DNA of 56,938 bases from a virus. A model generated the notes under the pieces. It worked only from the letters and a program-made list of their open reading frames with translations. It did no database searches and was not told where the DNA came from. The position numbers and the translations under genes are program-made. Location of the stretch: the IMG/VR virus record IMGVR_UViG_3300045988_173917, positions 1 through 56,938 of that record. One strand, 5' to 3'. Positions 226-56,938 of this stretch are shown in pieces (the first letter of the stretch is position 1; every line of letters begins with the position of its first letter).

Positions 226-1293
226 TTAGTCATTCAAATAGTTTTTTGCACTTTCAATAATTTCTTTTGAATAATTATATAACTCTTCAAGAGACGTAAT
301 TAGGTATTTTGTTCCTTTTTTATTTTCATCAAATACTTCAAGATATTTATTCGATCGATTAAAATGTAAACGACAGATAGGTTTTCTATTGTTATCATCT
401 AGTAATATGCCAAAATAAGAGATGGTATCTCTATATATAACTCTATTTAAATCAACAATCCCATGTAAAATTGATTTTACAATATAGAATCCTTGCAATT
501 CTTCTTCTGTAGTTACAATTAAATCTTCTCGGCTTTCTTCTTGTATTTGTTGTTCCTGATCTTGAGATTTAATTTCATCAGTTTGTGATTTTATTACCGA
601 TTTAAGTTTGTCGCTTATGTAATCACTGTTATACTGTTGAAAAGCTCTTCTTAACATATCTCTAAATTGTTCAACAATTGGTTTCGTGAGCATTGACGGA
701 TATACTTGTTTTGCAAAGTATTTTACAAATTCATCAGAAGGATCAGCTATTTCTTTAACGATTAGATTTCTTAATTCTGTAGTATATTTTAACTCACTTG
801 CAGTATTTAGAATAGATTCAATATCAAAGTAACTTTTATGAAATTCTTTTAACTTTTCAACTTGAACCTCTTTTAAGTCTTCTATGTTAATCTCAAAAAA
901 TGGTTTGTCATCCATTTTATTTGGCTCTACTAGGTCAGCATAGAACTTATAAATTATGCCGTTTGTGAGTATACCAAATTTAGCTTTAGATACATGATAG
1001 TACCTTAGAAGCTGCCCACTATGTAAATTTAAATCTTGCTTCCAGTGTTTGCATTCGATTAATATAATTGGATCTCCATCTTTACAAATTGTATAATCAA
1101 TTTTTTCACCTTTCTTTGTTCCTATATCACAAACACATTCTGGTATCACTTCTGTTGGATCGAAAATATCATATCCAAGAGATTGTATGAATGGAAGTAT
1201 AATAGCTGTTTTTGTGGCTTCTTCTGTTGCAATACTTTCTTTTAACTTGGATGCACGCTCTCCAAGTATTTTAATTTGATCTTTAAAATCCAT
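226..1293 (-). CDS. PD-(D/E)xK nuclease-fold protein, type I restriction HsdR N-terminal-like domain
   Basis: 355-aa ORF. The segment IDYTICKDGDPIILIECK fits a D...ExK restriction-endonuclease-like core. It is the first gene inside attL, transcribed with the repressor arm (moron position). Confidence 0.6.
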   Translation of the reverse strand: MDFKDQIKILGERASKLKESIATEEATKTAIILPFIQSLGYDIFDPTEVIPECVCDIGTKKGEKIDYTICKDGDPIILIECKHWKQDLNLHSGQLLRYYHVSKAKFGILTNGIIYKFYADLVEPNKMDDKPFFEINIEDLKEVQVEKLKEFHKSYFDIESILNTASELKYTTELRNLIVKEIADPSDEFVKYFAKQVYPSMLTKPIVEQFRDMLRRAFQQYNSDYISDKLKSVIKSQTDEIKSQDQEQQIQEESREDLIVTTEEELQGFYIVKSILHGIVDLNRVIYRDTISYFGILLDDNNRKPICRLHFNRSNKYLEVFDENKKGTKYLITSLEELYNYSKEIIESAKNYLND

Positions 1294-3507: not shown

Positions 3508-3578
3508 GGTCGGTTGTCCGAGTGGTCAGGAGCCAGTCCGCAAAACTGGGTACGCGGGTTCGAATCCCGCACCGACCT
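3508..3578 (+). tRNA. tRNA-Cys(GCA), phage-encoded, with atypical C at position 33
   Basis: Acceptor GGTCGGT/ACCGACC. 3-bp D stem with a 13:22 mismatch. Anticodon arm CCAGT-CCGCAAA-ACTGG. T arm GCGGG-TTCGAAT-CCCGC. Discriminator U, which is a Cys identity element. Confidence 0.75.
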
Positions 3579-3606
3579 CAGAATTTAACAACTAAAAATT
3601 GAAAAT

Positions 3607-3756: not shown

Positions 3757-3841
3757 GTGTTACCGCAAAGCACTATAACATAAGCGGGGTAGGTTTCATT
3801 CAAATATGGGAACACGGGCAACTGCAAGATAAGAAGTGACA

Positions 3842-3857
3842 GTCCGGAAAGACGGGC
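3842..3857 (+). repeat. Conserved GAAAGA-loop hairpin, copy 1, preceding a tRNA-like module
   Basis: GTCCG-GAAAGA-CGGGC. A near-identical hairpin occurs at 4151-4166. The flanking GTGACAG and ATAGAGAT(G/A)CG strings are also repeated, at 4076-4082 and 4092-4102. Confidence 0.5.
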
Positions 3858-3863
3858 AAAAAT

Positions 3864-4006: not shown

Positions 4007-4150
4007 CAACCCTAGTACTTTGGTATGAATGATTGTACAGCTTATGTGACACGGACAGGATACGTTATGCAACCTGTGACAGCCGGAAAGGATAGAGATA
4101 CGACGGCACGGACGGGAATAAGTTCACTAAACGGTCGAGGCAATCTGGCA

Positions 4151-4166
4151 GCCCGGAAAGACGGGC
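4151..4166 (+). repeat. Conserved GAAAGA-loop hairpin, copy 2, immediately 5' of tRNA-Thr
   Basis: GCCCG-GAAAGA-CGGGC followed by CAACCC and then the tRNA-Thr 5' end. The T:G pair in copy 1 corresponds to C:G here. Confidence 0.5.
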
Positions 4167-4171
4167 AACCC

Positions 4172-4244
4172 GCCTACTTAGCTCAGTTGGTAGAGCATCG
4201 GTTTTGTACTCCGAAGGTCATCCGTTCGAACCGGATAGTAGGCT
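4172..4244 (+). tRNA. tRNA-Thr(UGU), phage-encoded
   Basis: Cloverleaf: GCCTACT/AGTAGGC acceptor. GCTC-AGTTGGTA-GAGC D arm. TCGGT-TTTGTAC-TCCGA anticodon arm (31:39 is U:U). ATCCG-TTCGAAC-CGGAT T arm. Total 73 nt. Confidence 0.85.
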
Positions 4245-4417
4245 CAAAAGTAAGGCCGTTTAGTTTGACGACGTGGCGGCCTTACAAAAAACTCTAAGCT
4301 CTTTGACATGTTGACAGACAATAAAAAACACGCAGTTTGTCGCTGCGGGCTGGTGAACTACCGGGCAATACTCCGGTAGTGGCGAAAGTCGCGTGTCAAA
4401 GGCGCATTAAGCCAGCA

Positions 4418-6588: not shown

Positions 6589-7019
6589 AAATCAAACTCC
6601 TTAACACTTCCGTCGGTCTGAAACCGTTATACGATGAAGATTTAGAGGAAAAGAAAAAGTTGAAAATCGGAGAGGTTTACGAGGCCACTATCAAGCGGCC
6701 TCGAAACCTTTCCTTTCACCGAAAATATTTCGGACTCATTAACCTTGCCTGGGAATATCAGAATGAGATAGCGGTAGAGCATTTCAAGCACAGCATCGAA
6801 CTATTCAGAAAAACGGTAGAAATGGCAGCCGGATGGTGTGAGCCGATATACTCGATTGCCCGGAAAGAGTGGATTGAAGTTCCGAAGTCTATTGCTTTCG
6901 ATAAAATGGACGAAGACGAATTTCAAAACCTATACGAACGTGTAAAGGACGTATTATTTAAATACTTCCTCAAAAACATTTCAGTTGAAGAATTTGAAAA
7001 GAACCTTATTAATTTTTGA
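6585..7019 (+). CDS. Hypothetical phage early protein (DUF1367-like by recollection)
   Basis: RNLSFHRKYFGLINLAWE resembles the conserved FHRK(Y/F)F motif of that family. Overlapping start and stop with both neighbours. Confidence 0.45.
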   Translation: MKIKLLNTSVGLKPLYDEDLEEKKKLKIGEVYEATIKRPRNLSFHRKYFGLINLAWEYQNEIAVEHFKHSIELFRKTVEMAAGWCEPIYSIARKEWIEVPKSIAFDKMDEDEFQNLYERVKDVLFKYFLKNISVEEFEKNLINF

Positions 7020-7321
7020 TGAACTCATACATGACCAGCTCCGGCGAATATGTTCTTAAATCGGTCATAGACCGCCGGATTAGAGCAGCCAAAGAAAAGA
7101 AGATAGCCCAGATGATTGAAAAATATGGCTATCTTTTCTGTGAGGAATGTCATAGAAATGAGGCTGCAGGTATTCCACTTGATTGTTCACACGATATTCC
7201 AGTAAGTGAATGTCAAAAAAGAGGCCAATCGGAATTAGCCTGGGATGTAAATAACATTACAATCAGGTGCCGGGAATGCCACCACAAACATGATCATCAA
7301 TCACAATTTAGTTTTCCATGA
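7016..7321 (+). CDS. HNH endonuclease
   Basis: CEECH...CSHDIPVSE...NNITIRCRECHHKHD fits an HNH/zinc-finger core. Confidence 0.6.
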   Translation: MMNSYMTSSGEYVLKSVIDRRIRAAKEKKIAQMIEKYGYLFCEECHRNEAAGIPLDCSHDIPVSECQKRGQSELAWDVNNITIRCRECHHKHDHQSQFSFP

Positions 7322-7500
7322 AAATCCCATCTACCCTTTCTGCTCAAATCCTTTCCTTTCTATTTAAGGATAAAGCCGGACTAATCAGGCATCTCAAAGA
7401 GATACAAGATAGCCCGGTTTCTTTTTCGGATGTAAAAGGGAGGGAAAGACAAAGGAAGGCGGGGATACTGGTTAAGAAACTTGAAAAATTGAAACATTAA
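7318..7500 (+). CDS. Hypothetical protein
   Basis: 60-aa ORF whose start overlaps the upstream stop. Confidence 0.4.
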   Translation: MKIPSTLSAQILSFLFKDKAGLIRHLKEIQDSPVSFSDVKGRERQRKAGILVKKLEKLKH

Positions 7501-7504
7501 AATT

Positions 7505-7981
7505 ATGACAGCAACCTATTTTGAATCCACAGTAAAATACGAAAAAGTAAATGAGGATGGCAAAGCAAAGAAAGTGACTGAATTATACCTCATAGATGCA
7601 ATGAGCTTTTCGGAAACAGAAGAAAGGAGTTGCAGGCAGTTATCCGAAATAGTTCAGGGGGATTACCTCATTCAATCCCTGAAACGGTCAAAAATAACAG
7701 AATACATTGAATCAAATGACGAAAACGATGACCGACTCTACAAAGCAACAGTTAAAATAACCGATAGCGATAACTTCGGCAAAGAGAAAGAATCCTCAAT
7801 TCATTATCTAGTTGCCGCATCAAACATCAACCGGGCATTGGATAACCTCGAAAAATCACTGTCAACATTTGTAATACCCTATGAGATAGTAAAAATCGAA
7901 GATACGAAGTTTGTAGAAGTGATCCCCTACATACCGGACGACAAAGAACGCATACCGGACAATTTAAAACCACAACAATAA
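7505..7981 (+). CDS. DUF4494-like protein (Bacteroidetes phage-associated)
   Basis: The N-terminus FESTVKYEKVNEDGKAKKVTELYLIDAMSFSETEERS resembles the conserved start of that family as I recall it. Confidence 0.55.
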   Translation: MTATYFESTVKYEKVNEDGKAKKVTELYLIDAMSFSETEERSCRQLSEIVQGDYLIQSLKRSKITEYIESNDENDDRLYKATVKITDSDNFGKEKESSIHYLVAASNINRALDNLEKSLSTFVIPYEIVKIEDTKFVEVIPYIPDDKERIPDNLKPQQ

Positions 7982-7999
7982 CACTAAAACTATAATATC

Positions 8000-8389
8000 A
8001 TGGAAAAAATCACAGACAAAATTAAATCCTTCGAGGATGCTTGCAAGCATCTCAGACTTAACCCTAACGACCTGCCGGTTGTAGATATGCTTCCGGAGAA
8101 AGATAGGAAATCAATTATCGCATTCTACAAGCTTACAATTATTATCAGAGCATTGAATGAAGGTTGGGAACCAGATTGGTCAAATTGGGATGAATGTAAG
8201 TATTACAACTGGTTTTACGTTGAAAAAGGAGAAGACCAGCGTTCCTCCGGTTTTCGTTCCTACGATACGTACTACACGGATACGGACACGTGCACCGGCT
8301 CTCGGCTTTGCTTTAAGAATAGAGAATTAGCCGAATACGCCGCAGAACAATTCAAAAAACTATATCGTGAATATTTACTCATTCTTTAA
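8000..8389 (+). CDS. DGR target protein 1 (small, 129 aa; VR1 near the C-terminus)
   Basis: Contains VR1 at 8239-8311. It is a paralogue of the next gene (shared W.PDWSN...KYY..F...SSGFR.YDT...TGSRLC...AEY...F..LY). No signal peptide is evident. Confidence 0.85.
   Translation: MEKITDKIKSFEDACKHLRLNPNDLPVVDMLPEKDRKSIIAFYKLTIIIRALNEGWEPDWSNWDECKYYNWFYVEKGEDQRSSGFRSYDTYYTDTDTCTGSRLCFKNRELAEYAAEQFKKLYREYLLIL
8239..8311 (+). repeat. DGR variable region VR1
   Basis: 73-nt alignment to the TR shows 10 mismatches, all at TR adenines (TR positions 21, 23, 32, 41, 47, 53, 54, 59, 66, 70). Confidence 0.9.
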
Positions 8390-8399
8390 AAGAAAAAAC

Positions 8400-8876
8400 A
8401 TGAAGAAGACATTAGAGATAACGGAAGAACAAGCAAAGAAACTCTACTTTGAAGCATCCGAAAACTTCAAAGAAGTACTTGAATCGAACTTCGGGAAGAC
8501 AACATTTCTGAAAAACTTTCAAGACGCAGTAAAGACATACTATGATGCTTGTGAAATCATAGGAGAAAAGCCGATTGACGAACAGCATTTAATGGACTGT
8601 GGACTCGGAAAGTCGGAAATCGCATTCATGAAATTGAAAACAATCTTCAAAGCTGCAAATAAAATGAACAACGATTGGAAAGCAGATTACTCCAATTCAA
8701 GCCAGTATAAATATTATCCGTATTTTGTTTGGCGTTCCTCCGGTTTTCGTTACTACGATACGGACTACGCGCGTACGAGCACTTACACCGGCTCTCGGCT
8801 TTGCTGCGGTACATCTGATGATGCAGAATACATCGGAAAAAAATTTGAAGATTTATATAACGATTATTTTGGATAA
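8400..8876 (+). CDS. DGR target protein 2 (158 aa; VR2 near the C-terminus)
   Basis: Start taken at ATG 8400 (MKKTLEIT). Contains VR2 at 8732-8804. Paralogue of target 1. Confidence 0.85.
   Translation: MKKTLEITEEQAKKLYFEASENFKEVLESNFGKTTFLKNFQDAVKTYYDACEIIGEKPIDEQHLMDCGLGKSEIAFMKLKTIFKAANKMNNDWKADYSNSSQYKYYPYFVWRSSGFRYYDTDYARTSTYTGSRLCCGTSDDAEYIGKKFEDLYNDYFG
8732..8804 (+). repeat. DGR variable region VR2
   Basis: 73-nt alignment to the TR shows 11 mismatches. Ten are at TR adenines (23, 32, 38, 41, 42, 48, 53, 59, 66, 70) and one is G-to-T at position 52. Confidence 0.9.
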
Positions 8877-9208
8877 TGGAAAATAATGATGATGGAAGCC
8901 TGGGATTTCTGAATATTCAGCCCGATGAAGACAGGAAATATTTCCATTGTGAAGAGATAACCCAGCAAAAACTTTTAAACAAGTCATTCTGGGTTATCGA
9001 CTTTATCGGCAATCTCAAAACAAGGTATGGAAAGGAAAGATACCTTGTGAAAATCAAATTCGACATAGAAGATTCCGATGATAATGCGCGAAAATTCTTT
9101 ACGAACTCCAGTGAAATAAAATATATCCTCGACAAGATAAGGGAACTAAAGAAATTTCCTCGCAAAGTCACTATGTGTGCAGAAGGCACAAGATATTACT
9201 TCAAGTAA
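8876..9208 (+). CDS. Hypothetical protein between DGR target 2 and the TR (not Avd-like by eye)
   Basis: 110-aa ORF whose start overlaps the stop of target 2. The sequence looks beta-rich (FWVIDFIGNLKTRYGKERYLVKIKFDIED) rather than a four-helix bundle. Confidence 0.6.
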   Translation: MENNDDGSLGFLNIQPDEDRKYFHCEEITQQKLLNKSFWVIDFIGNLKTRYGKERYLVKIKFDIEDSDDNARKFFTNSSEIKYILDKIRELKKFPRKVTMCAEGTRYYFK

Positions 9209-9234
9209 AATTTCTGGGTTGTTTACCTGCGAGG

Positions 9235-9307
9235 GCGTTCCTCCGGTTTTCGTTACAACGATACGAACTACACGAATACGAACACGAACACCAGCTCTCA
9301 GCTATGC
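9235..9307 (+). repeat. DGR template repeat (TR), minimum extent
   Basis: Non-coding copy of the VRs. It reads RSSGFRYNDTNYTNTNTNTSSQLC in the VR frame, with five AAY codons. Weaker similarity to the target genes extends upstream to about 9213. It lies about 100 nt upstream of the RT start. Confidence 0.9.
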
Positions 9308-9410
9308 AGGAAAATAAAAACGGGTAAAGACCTTGCCACTCGGCAAAAAATCACGGAAATGTTTAAGGGTGTTAGTAAGAAATTCCGAACGCTCCCTAAG
9401 AAACCAGCAA

Positions 9411-10400
9411 ATGAAAAGAATAGGAAACCTGTACGAGAAAATTTGCGACATTGAAAATCTTTACCTCGCCGACACAAAAGCAAGCAAAGGAAAATCAATG
9501 ATGCACGGAGTAATAAGGCACCGAAGGAATCGGGATGAAAATCTCAGAAAACTTCATGAACTTCTGCAAAATGGGAACTTCAAAACATCGGAGTACAAAA
9601 CGTTCAAAATATTCGACCCGAAAGAAAGGGAAATATACCAGCTTCCATACTATCCAGACCGGATTGTACATCATGCCATAATGAACATACTGGAACCCAT
9701 ATTCGTATCGGTCCTCACAAAAGACACATATAGTTGCATTAAAGGAAGAGGCATTCATGGAGTAGTAAAAAATATCCGGAAATCACTTTCAGACGTTGAT
9801 AATTCCATTTATTGTCTGAAACTCGACATCAGAAAATTCTATCCATCAATAGACCATAAGATACTAAAAGAAATAATCAGACGGAAAATCAAAGATATAC
9901 GCCTCCTTTCATTGCTTGATAATATTATAGATTCGGCACCTGGCGTACCTATCGGAAACTACCTGTCACAATATTTTGCCAATCTCTACCTCGCTTATTT
10001 CGACCACTGGATAAAAGAGATTTTGAAAGTAAGATATTATTTCAGATATGCAGATGACATTGTCATACTCGATGTTGACAAAACACATCTTCATGACCTC
10101 TATTTTGAAATAAGAAACTATTTGTGGGACAATCTAAATTTAGAAGTAAAAGGGAATTGGCAAGTATTTCCAGTTTGTTCAAGAGGCATAGACTTTGTCG
10201 GATATGTATTCTATCACACTCATACAAAAATGCGCAAGCGGATTAAGAAAAAATTTTGCAAAAAAGCATCCATCCTTTTCAAAAAAGGAATCAAACAAAA
10301 TGAATGTGTACAAATACTTAGTCCGTGGATTGGATGGTCAAAACATTGTAATAGCAGACATCTATTAAAAAAACTAAGATTAAATCGGAATGAGCAATAA
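9411..10400 (+). CDS. DGR-type reverse transcriptase
   Basis: MKRIGNLYEKI... N-terminus. The IGNYLSQYFANLYL motif is the DGR-specific (I/L)GxxxSQ. The YADD catalytic box occurs in FRYADDIVIL. It is adjacent to the TR. The start is moved to ATG 9411 because upstream codons overlap the TR and spacer. Confidence 0.92.
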   Translation: MKRIGNLYEKICDIENLYLADTKASKGKSMMHGVIRHRRNRDENLRKLHELLQNGNFKTSEYKTFKIFDPKEREIYQLPYYPDRIVHHAIMNILEPIFVSVLTKDTYSCIKGRGIHGVVKNIRKSLSDVDNSIYCLKLDIRKFYPSIDHKILKEIIRRKIKDIRLLSLLDNIIDSAPGVPIGNYLSQYFANLYLAYFDHWIKEILKVRYYFRYADDIVILDVDKTHLHDLYFEIRNYLWDNLNLEVKGNWQVFPVCSRGIDFVGYVFYHTHTKMRKRIKKKFCKKASILFKKGIKQNECVQILSPWIGWSKHCNSRHLLKKLRLNRNEQ

Positions 10401-10545
10401 TTTATTCACACCAGAAGACAGCGAGCGCATCGAATTACTCTGTCAGCTTAATCGCTTAGAGGCTCCCGTAGAAAAGTTACGGGAGCTTGTTGTTTATACA
10501 GAAAAATATAACCGCAAAAAGGAAAGGGAAGAGGGAAAGAAATGA
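10390..10545 (+). CDS. Possible small ORF (51 aa) overlapping the RT stop
   Basis: ATG at 10390 overlaps the RT stop, and its TGA overlaps the ATG of the next gene. The only support is this translational-coupling geometry. Confidence 0.35.
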   Translation: MSNNLFTPEDSERIELLCQLNRLEAPVEKLRELVVYTEKYNRKKEREEGKK

Positions 10546-46231: not shown

Positions 46232-47347
46232 TTACAAATCTTTGAACACCTTTGGATAAATGAAATACTTTTCCGCATATTTAGGATTATTTGTGACGTA
46301 GTAGGGTAGGGCACTCCATCCCGATATTTGTTTTTTATGAGTTTGTGACCATTTGATGAACTTATCTGGTATGTCGGTTATCATCTTTGGTTTTACCGTT
46401 GTCGGTTCTTTGCCGTCTAATATCGCTTGCGTCATAGCGGCAATGTCTTCTTGTGTAGCGAATATCGGCGTCATGATACATCGGCAATGCGGATGCCATC
46501 CGTACCATACGAAATCTTTTGGGTACCTGCCTTGTGCATAGTCGCATATATCAATAAATGGCTCCGGCTTTCCTGTTTTCGGGTTCTTTAGCGTGTGGTT
46601 GTTCGATAATCTGATTTGAAAGCCTACAATTACTGGATTGTTTTGATAACTTTCCCATTCAGCCATCCGGTAAGAATTGTTTATTTCTGTTGCTGCAAGT
46701 CTTCTTGCGTTCATGTAGGAAGACCGATATACGCCTTGCCCGGGGTGATATTGCTTCGCCGCTTTGCTTAGCTTCAATTCTCCGGTTTCCTTGTCCCTTA
46801 TTCGGCGGAATAGTTTTTTCGGTTCTTGTAGATATTCCCTTAAATCCTTGCTTAGTTTTTGCGCCGATTCTCCGTTTGACACGGCAAGTTGTACGGATTC
46901 TTCAATTTGTGCCTTTATCCCGTCTTTCCATACCCTTGTGGATATGTCAAATTTATCTTTATTGAATTTAAAGGCATCCATCGCCTTATTCCGGTGCTTA
47001 AACAATCCGGATTTCCGCAAATTATCGGCTAATTCTGTAGAAATCTTGCTTAATACAAGCGTTTCCGTGACTTTTTCACCAATTCTCCATGCAGTTTCTT
47101 GGGCCGACGTGACAATAGAGTATATTTCATCGATAAGTTTGTCTATTTTCCCGTCGATGCCTTTTATTCCGTTAATATCAGAGAAAGATTTCAACTTTTT
47201 ACCGGATAGATACGATTTAACACCCGGAATATTCGCTATTGCCTTTGAAAATTCGGAATAAAGACGCTTCAAACGTGCTGCAGTCTGTGCGTTTAATTCA
47301 AGCAACAGGTTATATAACTGCTCGGGTGTTAAATCGTCTGTCTTCAT
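46232..47347 (-). CDS. Head morphogenesis protein (SPP1 gp7 / Mu F-like)
   Basis: The WHPHCRCIMTPI motif, and its position after the portal gene. Confidence 0.8.
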   Translation of the reverse strand: MKTDDLTPEQLYNLLLELNAQTAARLKRLYSEFSKAIANIPGVKSYLSGKKLKSFSDINGIKGIDGKIDKLIDEIYSIVTSAQETAWRIGEKVTETLVLSKISTELADNLRKSGLFKHRNKAMDAFKFNKDKFDISTRVWKDGIKAQIEESVQLAVSNGESAQKLSKDLREYLQEPKKLFRRIRDKETGELKLSKAAKQYHPGQGVYRSSYMNARRLAATEINNSYRMAEWESYQNNPVIVGFQIRLSNNHTLKNPKTGKPEPFIDICDYAQGRYPKDFVWYGWHPHCRCIMTPIFATQEDIAAMTQAILDGKEPTTVKPKMITDIPDKFIKWSQTHKKQISGWSALPYYVTNNPKYAEKYFIYPKVFKDL

Positions 47348-54129: not shown

Positions 54130-54205
54130 AATCCCTTCTGCATTGGAATTGAAATATGTATGTGGCTGTTTTATTATGCCTTGAATTGTACCAGCAGAAG
54201 GGATT
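54130..54205 (+). ncRNA. Structured RNA unit B
   Basis: AATCCCTTCTGC (54130-54141) pairs perfectly with GCAGAAGGGATT (54194-54205). GGAATTGAAAT lies at 54145-54155. Inner helices TGG:CCA and AATT:AATT. A T-run follows. Confidence 0.6.
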
Positions 54206-54211
54206 TTTAAA

Positions 54212-54293
54212 AGAACATTACTGTAATGGAATTGAAATATATATAGGGTTGATTGCCTTTAATTGTCTTAAATCGAACCAACAGTAATGTTCT
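54212..54293 (+). ncRNA. Structured RNA unit C
   Basis: AGAACATTACTGT (54212-54224) pairs perfectly with ACAGTAATGTTCT (54281-54293). GGAATTGAAAT lies at 54228-54238. Inner TGG:CCA helix. TCTG and T9 follow. Confidence 0.6.
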
Positions 54294-54317: not shown

Positions 54318-54608
54318 ATGGTAACTGAAGAAAAAATTGTCGACCTGTTAGGGGATTATGTTTCATGTATATCCCTAACCGAAGAACAGAAAGAATTAAC
54401 ACCTGAACAGAAAGAGTTTTATCAGGCTGCGGATGTTTGCCTTGAAATCCTGAAAAGGACAAGGTTAATATCCGGAATAGTAATAAAGCGGCCGGATGAA
54501 TTTAAAGAGGCATGGGAAGAAGATAAGCCTGAGTTTGATTTTATGTCTAAATACGCTATTTCTACCTGCGAAATAGCTGATGAAGTCATGAAAAAAATCC
54601 GGGAATGA
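54318..54608 (+). CDS. Hypothetical acidic helical protein, translationally coupled to the Cas6-like gene
   Basis: 96 aa, with an ATGA stop/start overlap at 54605-54608. Confidence 0.55.
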   Translation: MVTEEKIVDLLGDYVSCISLTEEQKELTPEQKEFYQAADVCLEILKRTRLISGIVIKRPDEFKEAWEEDKPEFDFMSKYAISTCEIADEVMKKIRE

Positions 54609-55366
54609 GAATAAAAGTAATCCTAAATGCTGATCCCGGAGATTTTATTGATATTAATTATCAATATAGCTTAGCAGCCTGGATTTATCGCGTTATGGAT
54701 AAATCGAATTCGGGATCGGCAGAATTTTGGCATAATTCCGGGTTATCATTTTCTGAAACAGACAATCGGCGTTATAAATTTTTTACATTTTCTAATCTGT
54801 ATATTCCGAAGTTCAGGCTGGAAGGAAGGAGAATGTATATTTTGTCGGATTATATTTCATTTATTTTCTCTACATATATAGATGAAATTGGATGTGATTT
54901 TATCGGGGGATTATCTGAAAACCCCGGATTTTATGTTGGTAAATATCTTAAAGTAAAAGAAATACAGGTATTAAGAGAAGATGATATTAAATCAGGCGTA
55001 ATACTAAAGGCCAAATCTCCTATTTACGTTCAGTCGGATAGTCTGCATTTAAATCCGATAGAACATAAAGATATTTACTCTGCTGCAATACACAAAAATT
55101 TAGCTTCTAAATATAACGTATTTTATAAGTCTGACCGCCACGATTTTATTCAGACCTCTGTAACGATTGTGTCTGGAATTAGACAAAAACTGATTACTAT
55201 AAAAGAAGGGAAGGATTCAGAGACTAAAATTAAAGGATTTCTCTATACATTTAAAGTCGAAGGTGATCCGGACCTGATCGAAATAGGTTATAAATGCGGA
55301 TTTGGGCAAGGGAATGCGATGGGGTTCGGTTTTGTCGATGTGATAGAACAAAAGGATGGAATATAA
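54605..55366 (+). CDS. cas6: Cas6-family CRISPR-type endoribonuclease (orphan; no other cas genes in the window)
   Basis: MRIKVIL...IDINYQYSLAAWIYRVM N-terminus and YKFFTFSNLY. The C-terminal G-rich loop IGYKCGFGQGNAMGFGFVDV closely parallels the Pyrococcus Cas6 VGYEVGFGEKNSLGFGMVKV as I recall it. Length is 253 aa. Confidence 0.85.
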   Translation: MRIKVILNADPGDFIDINYQYSLAAWIYRVMDKSNSGSAEFWHNSGLSFSETDNRRYKFFTFSNLYIPKFRLEGRRMYILSDYISFIFSTYIDEIGCDFIGGLSENPGFYVGKYLKVKEIQVLREDDIKSGVILKAKSPIYVQSDSLHLNPIEHKDIYSAAIHKNLASKYNVFYKSDRHDFIQTSVTIVSGIRQKLITIKEGKDSETKIKGFLYTFKVEGDPDLIEIGYKCGFGQGNAMGFGFVDVIEQKDGI

Positions 55367-55395: not shown

Positions 55396-56652
55396 CTATT
55401 CCCCGGTCTTTTCATACAATACATAGTCTATTACTTTTCTATTTGCTTCGTCTACTTGTGTGTAGTCATATTCACGGTATTTCTCAATCATTAATCCAGT
55501 AACTGAATGCATTAATCCTTTGTCTATTGTGGAATCCGGTATTCTTAATTGTCCTGCAATTGTTGCCCATGAATGTCTGGCATAGGTAAAACTAAAATGA
55601 GGGATTTTATCTTTTTCATTTTTAATATTCCTATTCATTTCTTCTATGTCCGATTTTATCCTGTCATCGATAAAGTGTGTTAGCTGTTTGTGGTTTTTGT
55701 ATTTAGTTTTAATCATTCTTATTTTATTTGGATCAGCATACTTTTTAATTATTTCTAATATTTCAGGTTGCAATTTTAACTTTAGACGTACCTCTCTTGC
55801 TGTACGTGCTGTTTTTAGACGACTAATATCTATATAATTTTCAAAGTAAGGTAAATAGAAAATATCCTTCATATTCATTCCACATAGAAAGAAGGATAAA
55901 AAGAAGAAATCACGTCCAATCCCAGGGCGTTGATAGAATTTTCGTAAGACTTCTATGTCAAGTTTTCTTATCTTTGCTTTATAATCCGATGGAATTGAAA
56001 TGGCATCAAATGGGTAAAGATCCCGGCTTATTACCTTTTGTCCAATTGCCACCTTAAAAACTCTTCGGATACAACGGAGATATTTTGTAAACGACACTTC
56101 TTTCTTATTTGTTCCTTTAAGAAAGAATTTTTTTAATTCTATAAGAGTATAGCTATCTATGTTCTGAAAGTAAATTTTATCAGTTTTAAAGAACTTTATT
56201 AATAAATTTTTGGTCCATCTGAATGTATCTGCGTAAGCCTTTCTTTTCATTTCTTCAGTAACCTCTTCGGATTCAAGGTCAAATATAATTTTATCAATGG
56301 TTCTTATAAAATCTGTTGATTGTTCGACTGGTTTCCCTAAATTCAATCTTATTCTGTCATAAGACATGAAAATTTGTTTTAAGGTCATGACTGACATATC
56401 CTTAACGGATTCTCCCAATTCTTTATAATAATCCTGATATCTGCCTTTTTGAGCAAATAAATCTGAGTTCCATTTCGCTGCCTCTGGAAATTCTTTCTTT
56501 ATAATTCCATTCCCCTGATCAAAAAAACTGGGCTCAATATAGTAGTTAGTCGGAATAAAAGTAGGATTTTTCCCTTTTTTCTTAATCTTAATTTTAATGT
56601 TTCCTTTTCCTGTCTTTCCTGAAACATCCCTTAGCACGACACTTAATTCCAT
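55396..56652 (-). CDS. int: Tyrosine recombinase / phage integrase
   Basis: 418 aa. FTYARHSWAT (HxxR region) and a C-terminal H...Y region (LMHSVTGLMIEKYREYDY). Adjacent to attR and the tRNA. Confidence 0.88.
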   Translation of the reverse strand: MELSVVLRDVSGKTGKGNIKIKIKKKGKNPTFIPTNYYIEPSFFDQGNGIIKKEFPEAAKWNSDLFAQKGRYQDYYKELGESVKDMSVMTLKQIFMSYDRIRLNLGKPVEQSTDFIRTIDKIIFDLESEEVTEEMKRKAYADTFRWTKNLLIKFFKTDKIYFQNIDSYTLIELKKFFLKGTNKKEVSFTKYLRCIRRVFKVAIGQKVISRDLYPFDAISIPSDYKAKIRKLDIEVLRKFYQRPGIGRDFFFLSFFLCGMNMKDIFYLPYFENYIDISRLKTARTAREVRLKLKLQPEILEIIKKYADPNKIRMIKTKYKNHKQLTHFIDDRIKSDIEEMNRNIKNEKDKIPHFSFTYARHSWATIAGQLRIPDSTIDKGLMHSVTGLMIEKYREYDYTQVDEANRKVIDYVLYEKTGE

Positions 56653-56772: not shown

Positions 56773-56881
56773 AATAACCCCTTTTTTAGCACAAAAGTGT
56801 GTTTTTTGTTACTTTTTACTTCGGATGTAAGGAACAAAAAAAGGAGTCAGATTATATCTAACTCCTTGATTTTCAATTTGT

Positions 56882-56938
56882 ACCCAGGGCGGGAATCGAA
56901 CCCGCACGTCTGTTGAGGACACTGGATTTTGAGTCCAG
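56882..56938 (-). tRNA. 3' part of tRNA-Leu(CAA) (attR); the gene probably continues beyond the window edge
   Basis: Identical to 1-55, plus acceptor nt and discriminator (..CCTGGGTA on the minus strand). The 5' half would lie at coordinates above 56938. Confidence 0.8.

Follow-up and report, generated by a model that had tools for sequence, protein, structure and literature searches.

A diversity-generating retroelement with two small target genes in the early region of a Bacteroidota-type prophage

Layout of the cassette and its reverse transcriptase

We analysed a viral DNA sequence of 56,938 nucleotides, IMG/VR record IMGVR_UViG_3300045988_173917 (positions 1 to 56,938; the whole stretch is referred to here as the window). 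Positions 8000–10400 hold two small paralogous genes, T1 and T2, followed by a third small gene, X110, an intergenic repeat, a spacer and a gene for a reverse transcriptase (RT). A first-pass annotation, made from the sequence alone, had described this locus as a diversity-generating retroelement (DGR) with one template repeat (TR) and two variable repeats (VR1 and VR2). We consider it highly probable that the element is indeed a DGR, that it is active, and that it works by mutagenic retrohoming. The positions of the features are collected in Table 1.

Three in-register copies of a repeat of 73–74 nt start at 8239, 8732 and 9235, and the TR aligns with both VRs without gaps, which bears out the three-copy arrangement described in the first-pass annotation. 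The first 20 nt of the repeat are free of adenines, and this head has exactly three exact occurrences in the window, where 0.02 would be expected by chance. A recount of the mismatches gave the same figures as before: VR1 differs from the TR at 10 positions, all of them TR adenines, and VR2 at 11 positions, 10 of them TR adenines and the other a G52→T change. TR adenines (21 in 73 nt) account for 20 of the 21 mismatches in the window (binomial P of ≥20 = 2.3e-10). Read in the frame of the VRs, the TR encodes RSSGFRYNDTNYTNTNTNTSSQLC and contains the five AAY codons previously pointed out. Replacement of any of the 18 adenines in the mutagenised zone cannot create a stop codon, and the repertoire open to each VR comes to ~6.9e10 different sequences as DNA and ~5.0e10 as protein. 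When the window was searched for the TR head and for the 3′ segment of the VRs, a putative initiation of mutagenic homing (IMH) site, no remote VR was found. Since there is no further copy of either, no tail gene of the window appears to be a target.

Table 1. Features of the cassette and of its surroundings in the window (aa, amino acids; nt, nucleotides; pI, isoelectric point; ORF, open reading frame; IMH*, the TR counterpart of the IMH).
Feature	Positions	Strand	Description
T1	8000-8389	+	129 aa, acidic, pI 5.3; phrog_11581 at 3.6e-30
VR1	8239-8311	+	T1 residues 80-104; variable residues 87-99; 26 codons between VR1 end and stop
IMH-like 3′ end of VR1	8295-8311	+	CCGGCTCTCGGCTTTGC; invariant in all VRs, three fixed differences from TR
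T2	8400-8876	+	158 aa, acidic; T1 paralogue with an extra N-terminal helical extension; phrog_11581
VR2	8732-8804	+	Within T2; 24 codons between VR2 end and stop
IMH-like 3′ end of VR2	8788-8804	+	CCGGCTCTCGGCTTTGC; same basis as VR1 end
X110, candidate accessory gene	8876-9208	+	110 aa, mildly basic, pI 8.5; phrog_19665
TR	9235-9307	+	73 nt; 21 adenines, 18 in the mutagenised zone (positions 21-56); intergenic
IMH*-like 3′ end of TR	9291-9307	+	CCAGCTCTCAGCTATGC
TR-RT spacer, conserved RNA structure	9308-9410	+	103 nt; covariation in 28 loci
DGR reverse transcriptase	9411-10400	+	329 aa; PDB 8ub7, RVT_1, phrog_1423, motifs
Stem-loop	10460-10488	+	12 bp; terminator-like scan match; 60 nt past RT stop, inside small ORF 10390-10545
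DUF4494 protein	7505-7981	+	158 aa, pI 4.76; directly upstream of T1; Pfam 4e-38
HSDR_N-type endonuclease	226-1293	-	Left end of window
Tyrosine integrase	55396-56652	-	Phage_int_SAM_5 and Arm-DNA-bind_5
tRNA gene cut by window end	56881-56938	-	Beside integrase

On sequence grounds, the 329-aa protein is a DGR-type RT. Its best relative of solved structure is bRT of Bordetella phage BPP-1 (PDB 8ub7), matched over residues 2–318 with an E value of 1.7e-50; the RTs of group II introns and retrons come next, at ~1e-12, so that bRT is by far the best match among solved structures, as expected from the earlier assignment of the protein to the DGR clade. It also matches Pfam RVT_1 (2e-14) and phrog_1423 (2.6e-119). 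The two motifs named in the first-pass annotation are both present, as PIGNYLSQ (IGxxxSQ, motif 4) and RYADDIV (the YADD box). The NCBIfam models that it hits, for group II, Drt and retron RTs, all score below threshold.

Variation between genomes and the 3′ boundary

A scan of IMG/VR with the RT returned 515 relatives, 80 of which were fetched as loci. Five contigs from other samples (L001–L005) carry an RT and a TR identical to those of the window, and their VRs differ both from one another and from those of the window. Counted over the nine distinct VRs that share the window TR, 105 of 106 differences from the TR fall at TR adenines, at positions 21–56. The comparison with related genomes, which the first-pass annotation had proposed as a check, thus shows variation confined to TR-adenine positions with this single exception. 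The diversified zone had been placed at TR positions of about 21–54; its start agrees with the present data, but its end does not, since relatives with the same TR vary up to position 56. The window differs from each of the five contigs at 19–21 of 146 VR bases and at 2–3 of the other ~3400 bases of the region 7000–10540. An identical TR and RT and near-identical flanks next to differing VRs indicate recent activity of the element. In a more distant relative (L006, RT identity 83%), substitutions in the TR are mirrored in both of its VRs, which shows that information flows from TR to VR.

The same pattern is seen at the protein level. Among 61 full-length T1 homologues, sequence entropy is maximal at residues 87–99, the codons of which hold the TR adenines. 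Changes to the adenines of the codon alone account for the substitutions observed at residues 87, 90, 92 and 93, apart from two single sequences at residue 87. Residue 89 also shows T, which cannot be produced from the window TR; homologues that have another TR may be its source.

The 3′ end of the repeat behaves differently from the rest. Positions 59, 66 and 70 are G, G and T in all nine distinct VRs and A, A and A in the TR. The first-pass annotation had noted these three differences in the two VRs of the window and had read them as an IMH/IMH*-type boundary; they are fixed in the nine VRs and recur across the RT clade, about 70 related DGR loci repeating the contrast between VRs that end in ...TCGGCTCYCGSCTTTGC and TRs that end in ...TCAGCTCYCASCTATGC. 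The third difference is synonymous (CTA in the TR, CTT in the VRs), so selection at the protein level does not explain its fixation. In three loci (L018, L040 and L049), the fixed 3′ differences include G→T or C→T changes at non-adenine positions. Such changes lie beyond adenine mutagenesis and indicate that the 3′ segment is not overwritten by the complementary DNA (cDNA). By comparison of these repeats, the segment fits an IMH/IMH* boundary.

We considered the possibility that retrohoming has ended and that the element is a relic, its VR differences among genomes being of old date. One VR2 sequence is common to L001, L002 and L005, which come from several samples, and the present analysis includes no direct measure of activity. 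However, the RT frame is intact and its catalytic motifs are kept, and the six genomes with an identical TR differ at 9–15 VR positions each and at only 2–3 of ~3400 flanking positions. So many differences in the VRs, set against so few in the flanks, imply that the VR changes are much younger than ordinary divergence, and a relic is very improbable. There is next to no probability that the repeats are ordinary paralogous copies shaped by point mutation or gene conversion, beside an RT that belongs to a retron, a group II intron or some other retroelement. The best named NCBIfam model for the RT is indeed that of a group II intron RT/maturase, but at 110 bits against a cut-off of 300, and bRT is by far the closest solved relative. 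The Rfam scan of the window detected no RNA of an intron or retron, 105 of the 106 differences lie at the adenines of one copy only, and this one-directional pattern recurs in about 70 related loci. The RT match, the adenine pattern and its recurrence in relatives refute the retron, group II intron and paralogous-repeat explanations alike.

Two points speak against the reading of the element as an active DGR that works by mutagenic retrohoming. Its activity is deduced from assembled genomes of different samples, and not from experiment or from read-level population data. Furthermore, the 110 nt after each VR contain no GC-rich hairpin or cruciform like that of BPP-1: DNA folds of these stretches were no better than shuffles (z = -1.0 after VR1 and -0.8 after VR2), and no inverted repeat is common to both. 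Without such a hairpin, the mechanism may differ in detail from that of the model system. Even so, the checks proposed in the first-pass annotation, as far as they were run, all came out for a DGR. The cassette is of textbook quality, with natural evidence of activity, and would lend itself to use as a clean reference case.

The RT companion, the spacer RNA and a proposed mechanism

X110 lies between VR2 and the TR, its ATG overlapping the stop codon of T2 by one base. The resulting order of target, small accessory gene, TR, spacer and RT is that of BPP-1 (mtd-avd-TR-brt), with X110 at the position of avd. Avd is a basic protein of ~128 aa that forms a helical bundle. The AlphaFold2 model of X110 has an overall predicted local distance difference test (pLDDT) score of 87 and the topology β1-β2-β3-helix-β4-β5, with five strands and one main helix. 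X110 matched nothing in Pfam or the PDB and matched no Avd, including in a sequence comparison with the Avd chains of the PDB. Among the top Foldseek matches of the model were the oligonucleotide/oligosaccharide-binding (OB) domain OB-A of Teb1, the single-stranded DNA-binding proteins (SSBs) of human and of phage PRD1, RPA70N, and the B subunits of AB5 toxins. OB-fold proteins abound among the matches, but none of the matches was significant (best E 0.19; template modelling score ≤0.37). The model fits an OB-like β-barrel, although an assignment built on topology and on non-significant Foldseek matches is open to question. A further point against the reading as an active DGR is that neither the ORFs of the cassette nor 41 other small ORFs of the window matched an Avd-family Pfam model. 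A literature search for an OB-fold accessory protein of DGRs returned nothing relevant.

Of the 80 related loci, 49 have a homologue of X110 adjoining the RT gene; its place is upstream of the TR in some and downstream of the RT in others. These homologues are found beside both types of target in the clade, the small type represented by T1 and T2 and a large type described below, which are unrelated to each other. Two further homologues, retrieved with X110 itself, each have a large target on one side and an RVT_1 gene on the other. Because it stands beside the RT in two gene orders and with two target types, X110 appears to travel with the TR and RT as a unit, and we infer that it is an accessory factor of the RT. 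About 74% of DGRs carry Avd and 26% are without it (Wu et al. 2018, PMC5758913); an RT clade that is paired with a β-barrel instead of Avd bears on how Avd-less DGRs work, a question raised in the same paper.

The spacer between TR and RT contains a conserved RNA structure. A first hairpin of 5 bp (9333–9337 with 9342–9346) is followed by a run of A, and a second helix (9367–9373 with 9388–9396) encloses a small hairpin. In an alignment of 28 loci, 90% of the cells are paired, compared to 34–53% when the partners are slid, and compensatory changes occur in 11 of the 12 pairs. Covariation scores 0.60, compared to ≤0.23 in the controls, and none of 500 shuffles reached the observed value. Folding of the TR and spacer as a single sequence gave a result no better than shuffles (z = -0.17), the structure being visible only across loci. 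By its likeness to the spacer of BPP-1, this RNA probably serves as a scaffold and priming region.

The components themselves, the adenine-specific pattern, the recent variation between genomes and the fixed boundary were observed directly; the order of the molecular steps is modelled on Bordetella phage BPP-1. T1, T2, X110, the TR, the spacer and the RT gene follow one another on one strand almost without gaps, and would probably be transcribed as one RNA, for which the stem-loop downstream of the RT gene may be the terminator. The RT would copy the TR part of this RNA into cDNA, misincorporating opposite the template adenines, with the X110 β-barrel and the structured RNA of the spacer probably standing in for Avd as its partners. 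Next, the cDNA would take the place of its homologous counterpart in VR1 or VR2. A conserved 17-nt IMH, present at the 3′ end of both VRs, would mark the targets and escape overwriting, and the TR, which carries the IMH* variant, would stay unchanged. The outcome, for residues 87–99 of T1 and for the corresponding loop of T2, would be a new draw, free of stop codons, from ~5e10 sequences.

The targets, their relatives and the prophage around them

T1 and T2 share 39% identity (BLASTP E 2e-23). T2 starts at 8400 and has 158 residues, which corrects an earlier note; its homologues are also 158 aa long. The family to which both belong, phrog_11581, has an annotation without a function, and neither protein matched a Pfam or NCBIfam family. 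No signal peptide or membrane segment was visible by eye in either of them (no predictor was run). The VRs are internal to the two genes, and a conserved helix of ~25 residues follows. The hypermutated part is a loop of 13 residues in T1 together with the matching loop in T2. The AlphaFold model of T1 has an overall pLDDT of 72, with values below 50 for the VR loop, and consists of three N-terminal helices, a hairpin, the VR loop and a C-terminal helix. This model, the only one made of a target, had no Foldseek match in the PDB, and in BFVD it matched only uncharacterised phage proteins. Sequence and profile searches of the PDB with T1 gave nothing significant (best E 0.059, to an unrelated monobody).

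T1 has 2320 homologues, and the T1/T2 family as a whole comprises 3740 clusters at 50% identity with E values up to 1e-3. Many members (including P0251–P0260) are 250–305 aa long and carry the domain twice in tandem; in most of the ten top-ranking ones, each copy has a GSRLC- or GSRLV-type motif. To judge by sequence, these two-copy proteins are single-gene equivalents of the T2–T1 pair. A T2 homologue in the Bacteroides phage LoVEphage (MW660583.1, 33613–34197; L081, 3869–4453) has a longer loop, LVLWGGDANYGAGCGLASASSYSAWSISSAGVGSRL, which resembles the full-length VR of large tail-module targets; the 8.4 kb examined there carry no annotated RT. A T1 homologue with 66% identity is found at 9001–9408 of L089 (GCA_031553765.1, JAVBKY010000003.1), in the early region of a prophage and after an AAA_23 ATPase gene, with no RVT_1 gene within 9 kb. 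Either a distant DGR may target it remotely, or it may be an undiversified member of the family.

The closest DGRs with other targets belong to the same RT clade (L007, L010, L031, L035 and others), their RTs being 60–67% identical to that of the window. Many of them have an X110 homologue (65–67% identity in L007 and L010, 43% in L035); none was detected in L031. These sister DGRs have the same spacer RNA structure, the same IMH/IMH* pair and a VR that ends in GSRLCF, but differ in that a single VR of ~113–120 nt is found at the extreme C-terminus of a target of ~440–600 aa. At least one of the large targets is encoded directly after a tape-measure gene. The ~450-aa targets match no Pfam family, and a profile of the large targets aligned with the VR of Mtd with an E value of only 0.51. 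In a profile comparison between T1 and the large targets, only the VR segment of T1 aligned, to the last two-thirds of the sister VR (hhalign probability 89%). For this reason, the variable loop of T1 and T2 looks like a shortened version of the usual VR of the clade, placed on an unrelated small scaffold.

The cassette lies in a plus-strand block of early genes, with genes for an exonuclease, an SSB and NinB on one side and for a replisome organiser and DnaB on the other. The terminase, portal, major head and tape-measure genes and a gene for a 1742-aa fibre-like protein are on the minus strand; the tape-measure and fibre-like genes are at least 20 kb from the cassette. Five members of the T1/T2 family whose context was examined are likewise among early or DNA-metabolism genes (AAA_23, SSB, methylases and DNA polymerase A). 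Given this recombination and replication neighbourhood, and the lack of an export signal visible by eye, it is quite possible, though short of probable, that T1 and T2 act within the infected or lysogenic cell as diversified binding proteins, for example on variable factors of the host or of rival phages, and are not receptor-binding parts of the tail. If the family does act inside the cell, DGRs would have a role beyond host-range switching. Two considerations tell against an intracellular role: the grounds for it are solely the position of the genes and export signals unseen by eye, and T1 and T2 could also be small proteins that decorate the virion.

An alternative that we regard as rather unlikely, though one to be taken seriously, accepts the DGR as real and takes T1 and T2 to be adhesins or receptor-binding add-ons of the virion, with early or constitutive expression and attachment to the tail or head. 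The DGR would then serve to switch host range or adherence to mucus, the role it has in BPP-1 or the one proposed for Hankyphage. The homology between the VR segment of T1 and the VR of the ~450-aa sister targets, one larger sister target being encoded directly after a tape-measure gene, is in favour of it, as is the fact that tail proteins are most of the characterised DGR targets of phages (PMC8144416). On the other hand, T1 and T2 have no similarity to the tail-module targets outside the VR; their genes are in a recombination/replication module, far from the tail genes and on the opposite strand, and the relatives of T1 in other phages are also found among early genes.

The likeness to BPP-1 extends from the gene order to the adenine-specific differences between TR and VR, the IMH/IMH*-type 3′ boundary, the AAY-rich and stop-free TR, and an RT that is homologous over its full length. 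The differences are considerable. Here, there are two small targets in tandem, as opposed to a single tail-fibre gene in BPP-1, and the VRs are 73 nt long and internal to their genes, compared to a VR of 134 nt at the gene end (PMC6199706). In the window, no C-type lectin fold and no Avd were detected, the gene at the avd position encodes a predicted β-barrel, no GC-rich hairpin follows the VRs, and the cassette sits in a module of early genes. The known DGR variable proteins with a C-type lectin fold also lack the conserved 25-residue helix that follows the VR in T1.

A closer resemblance may be found in the DGRs of Lineage 3/3A, which are restricted to Bacteroides and lack avd, some having VRs internal to small targets without recognisable motifs; they are flanked by a small acidic gene, CH1, with a product of 160–169 aa and a pI of 4.7 (PMC5758913). 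The window resembles them in that no Avd was detected, the VRs are internal, and the DUF4494 protein upstream of T1 is similar to CH1 in size and pI. That the element belongs to lineage 3A and that DUF4494 corresponds to CH1 are no more than leads, as the comparison was made with the published description. A 110-aa β-barrel companion of the RT is not described in the text of PMC5758913.

A non-structural DGR target has been proposed to take part in phage–host conflict in Quimbyvirus, a phage of Bacteroides (Benler et al. 2021, PMC8008677), which the window resembles in having targets outside the structural module. The non-structural target of Quimbyvirus, however, has a C-type lectin domain and is encoded at a long distance from the RT, with another target in the tail module, whereas both targets in the window are small, lie by the RT and have no recognised fold, and there is no tail target. 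Roux et al. describe viral targets that form a class without a known function, and anticipate unrecognised C-type lectin fold variants (PMC8144416).

The kind of element described here is thus known and has probably been catalogued already; the biology of the small targets and the β-barrel companion are undescribed in the literature that we examined. Non-tail targets, the failure to detect Avd, a conserved RT companion between VR2 and TR and the covarying spacer RNA are points that go beyond the first-pass annotation. We would suggest only with considerable reserve that the cassette stands for a large, uncharacterised class of phage DGRs, which would diversify not receptor-binding tail proteins but small cytoplasmic early proteins, as a programmable intracellular binder in phage–host or phage–phage conflict, with an OB-like barrel and a spacer RNA in the place of Avd.

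The DUF4494 protein had no significant match in the PDB by sequence or profile searches. A homologue with 30–35% identity is found upstream of T-type targets in seven related but distant loci (L032, L033, L036, L042, L053, L054 and L059), and the protein may be functionally linked to the cassette. The window as a whole is a siphovirus-like prophage of Bacteroidota type, and the integrase gene beside a tRNA gene suggests integration at the tRNA. Megablast of the cassette against the phage sequences in GenBank returned nothing, and the phage relatives in GenBank (LoVEphage, crAss-like phages and BT-TP2) are only distant ones, detected at the protein level. An Rfam scan of the window found tRNAs only.

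Several other features of the window were noted. A 253-aa protein encoded near the integrase (54605–55366, plus strand) matches Cas6 (C-terminal Pfam model, 4e-22; Cas6_I-A N-terminal model, 4e-12). Upstream of its gene is a pair of 34-nt repeats (54138–54171 and 54221–54254), 79% identical and spaced by 83 nt. The two may represent a lone phage Cas6 with a mini array; no other Cas family was found near the Cas6-like gene in the ORFs that were scanned, a set that left out ORF 54318–54608. On the minus strand, a head-morphogenesis-like protein (46232–47347) also matches phrog_16625, "Bxa ADP-ribosyl transferase", over residues 181–359 (1.1e-59). Genes for tRNA-Cys(GCA) and tRNA-Thr(TGT) are found on the plus strand at 3508–3579 and 4172–4245, and between them are two copies of a 23-nt direct repeat (3837–3859 and 4146–4168), 91% identical, the second of which precedes the tRNA-Thr(TGT) gene.

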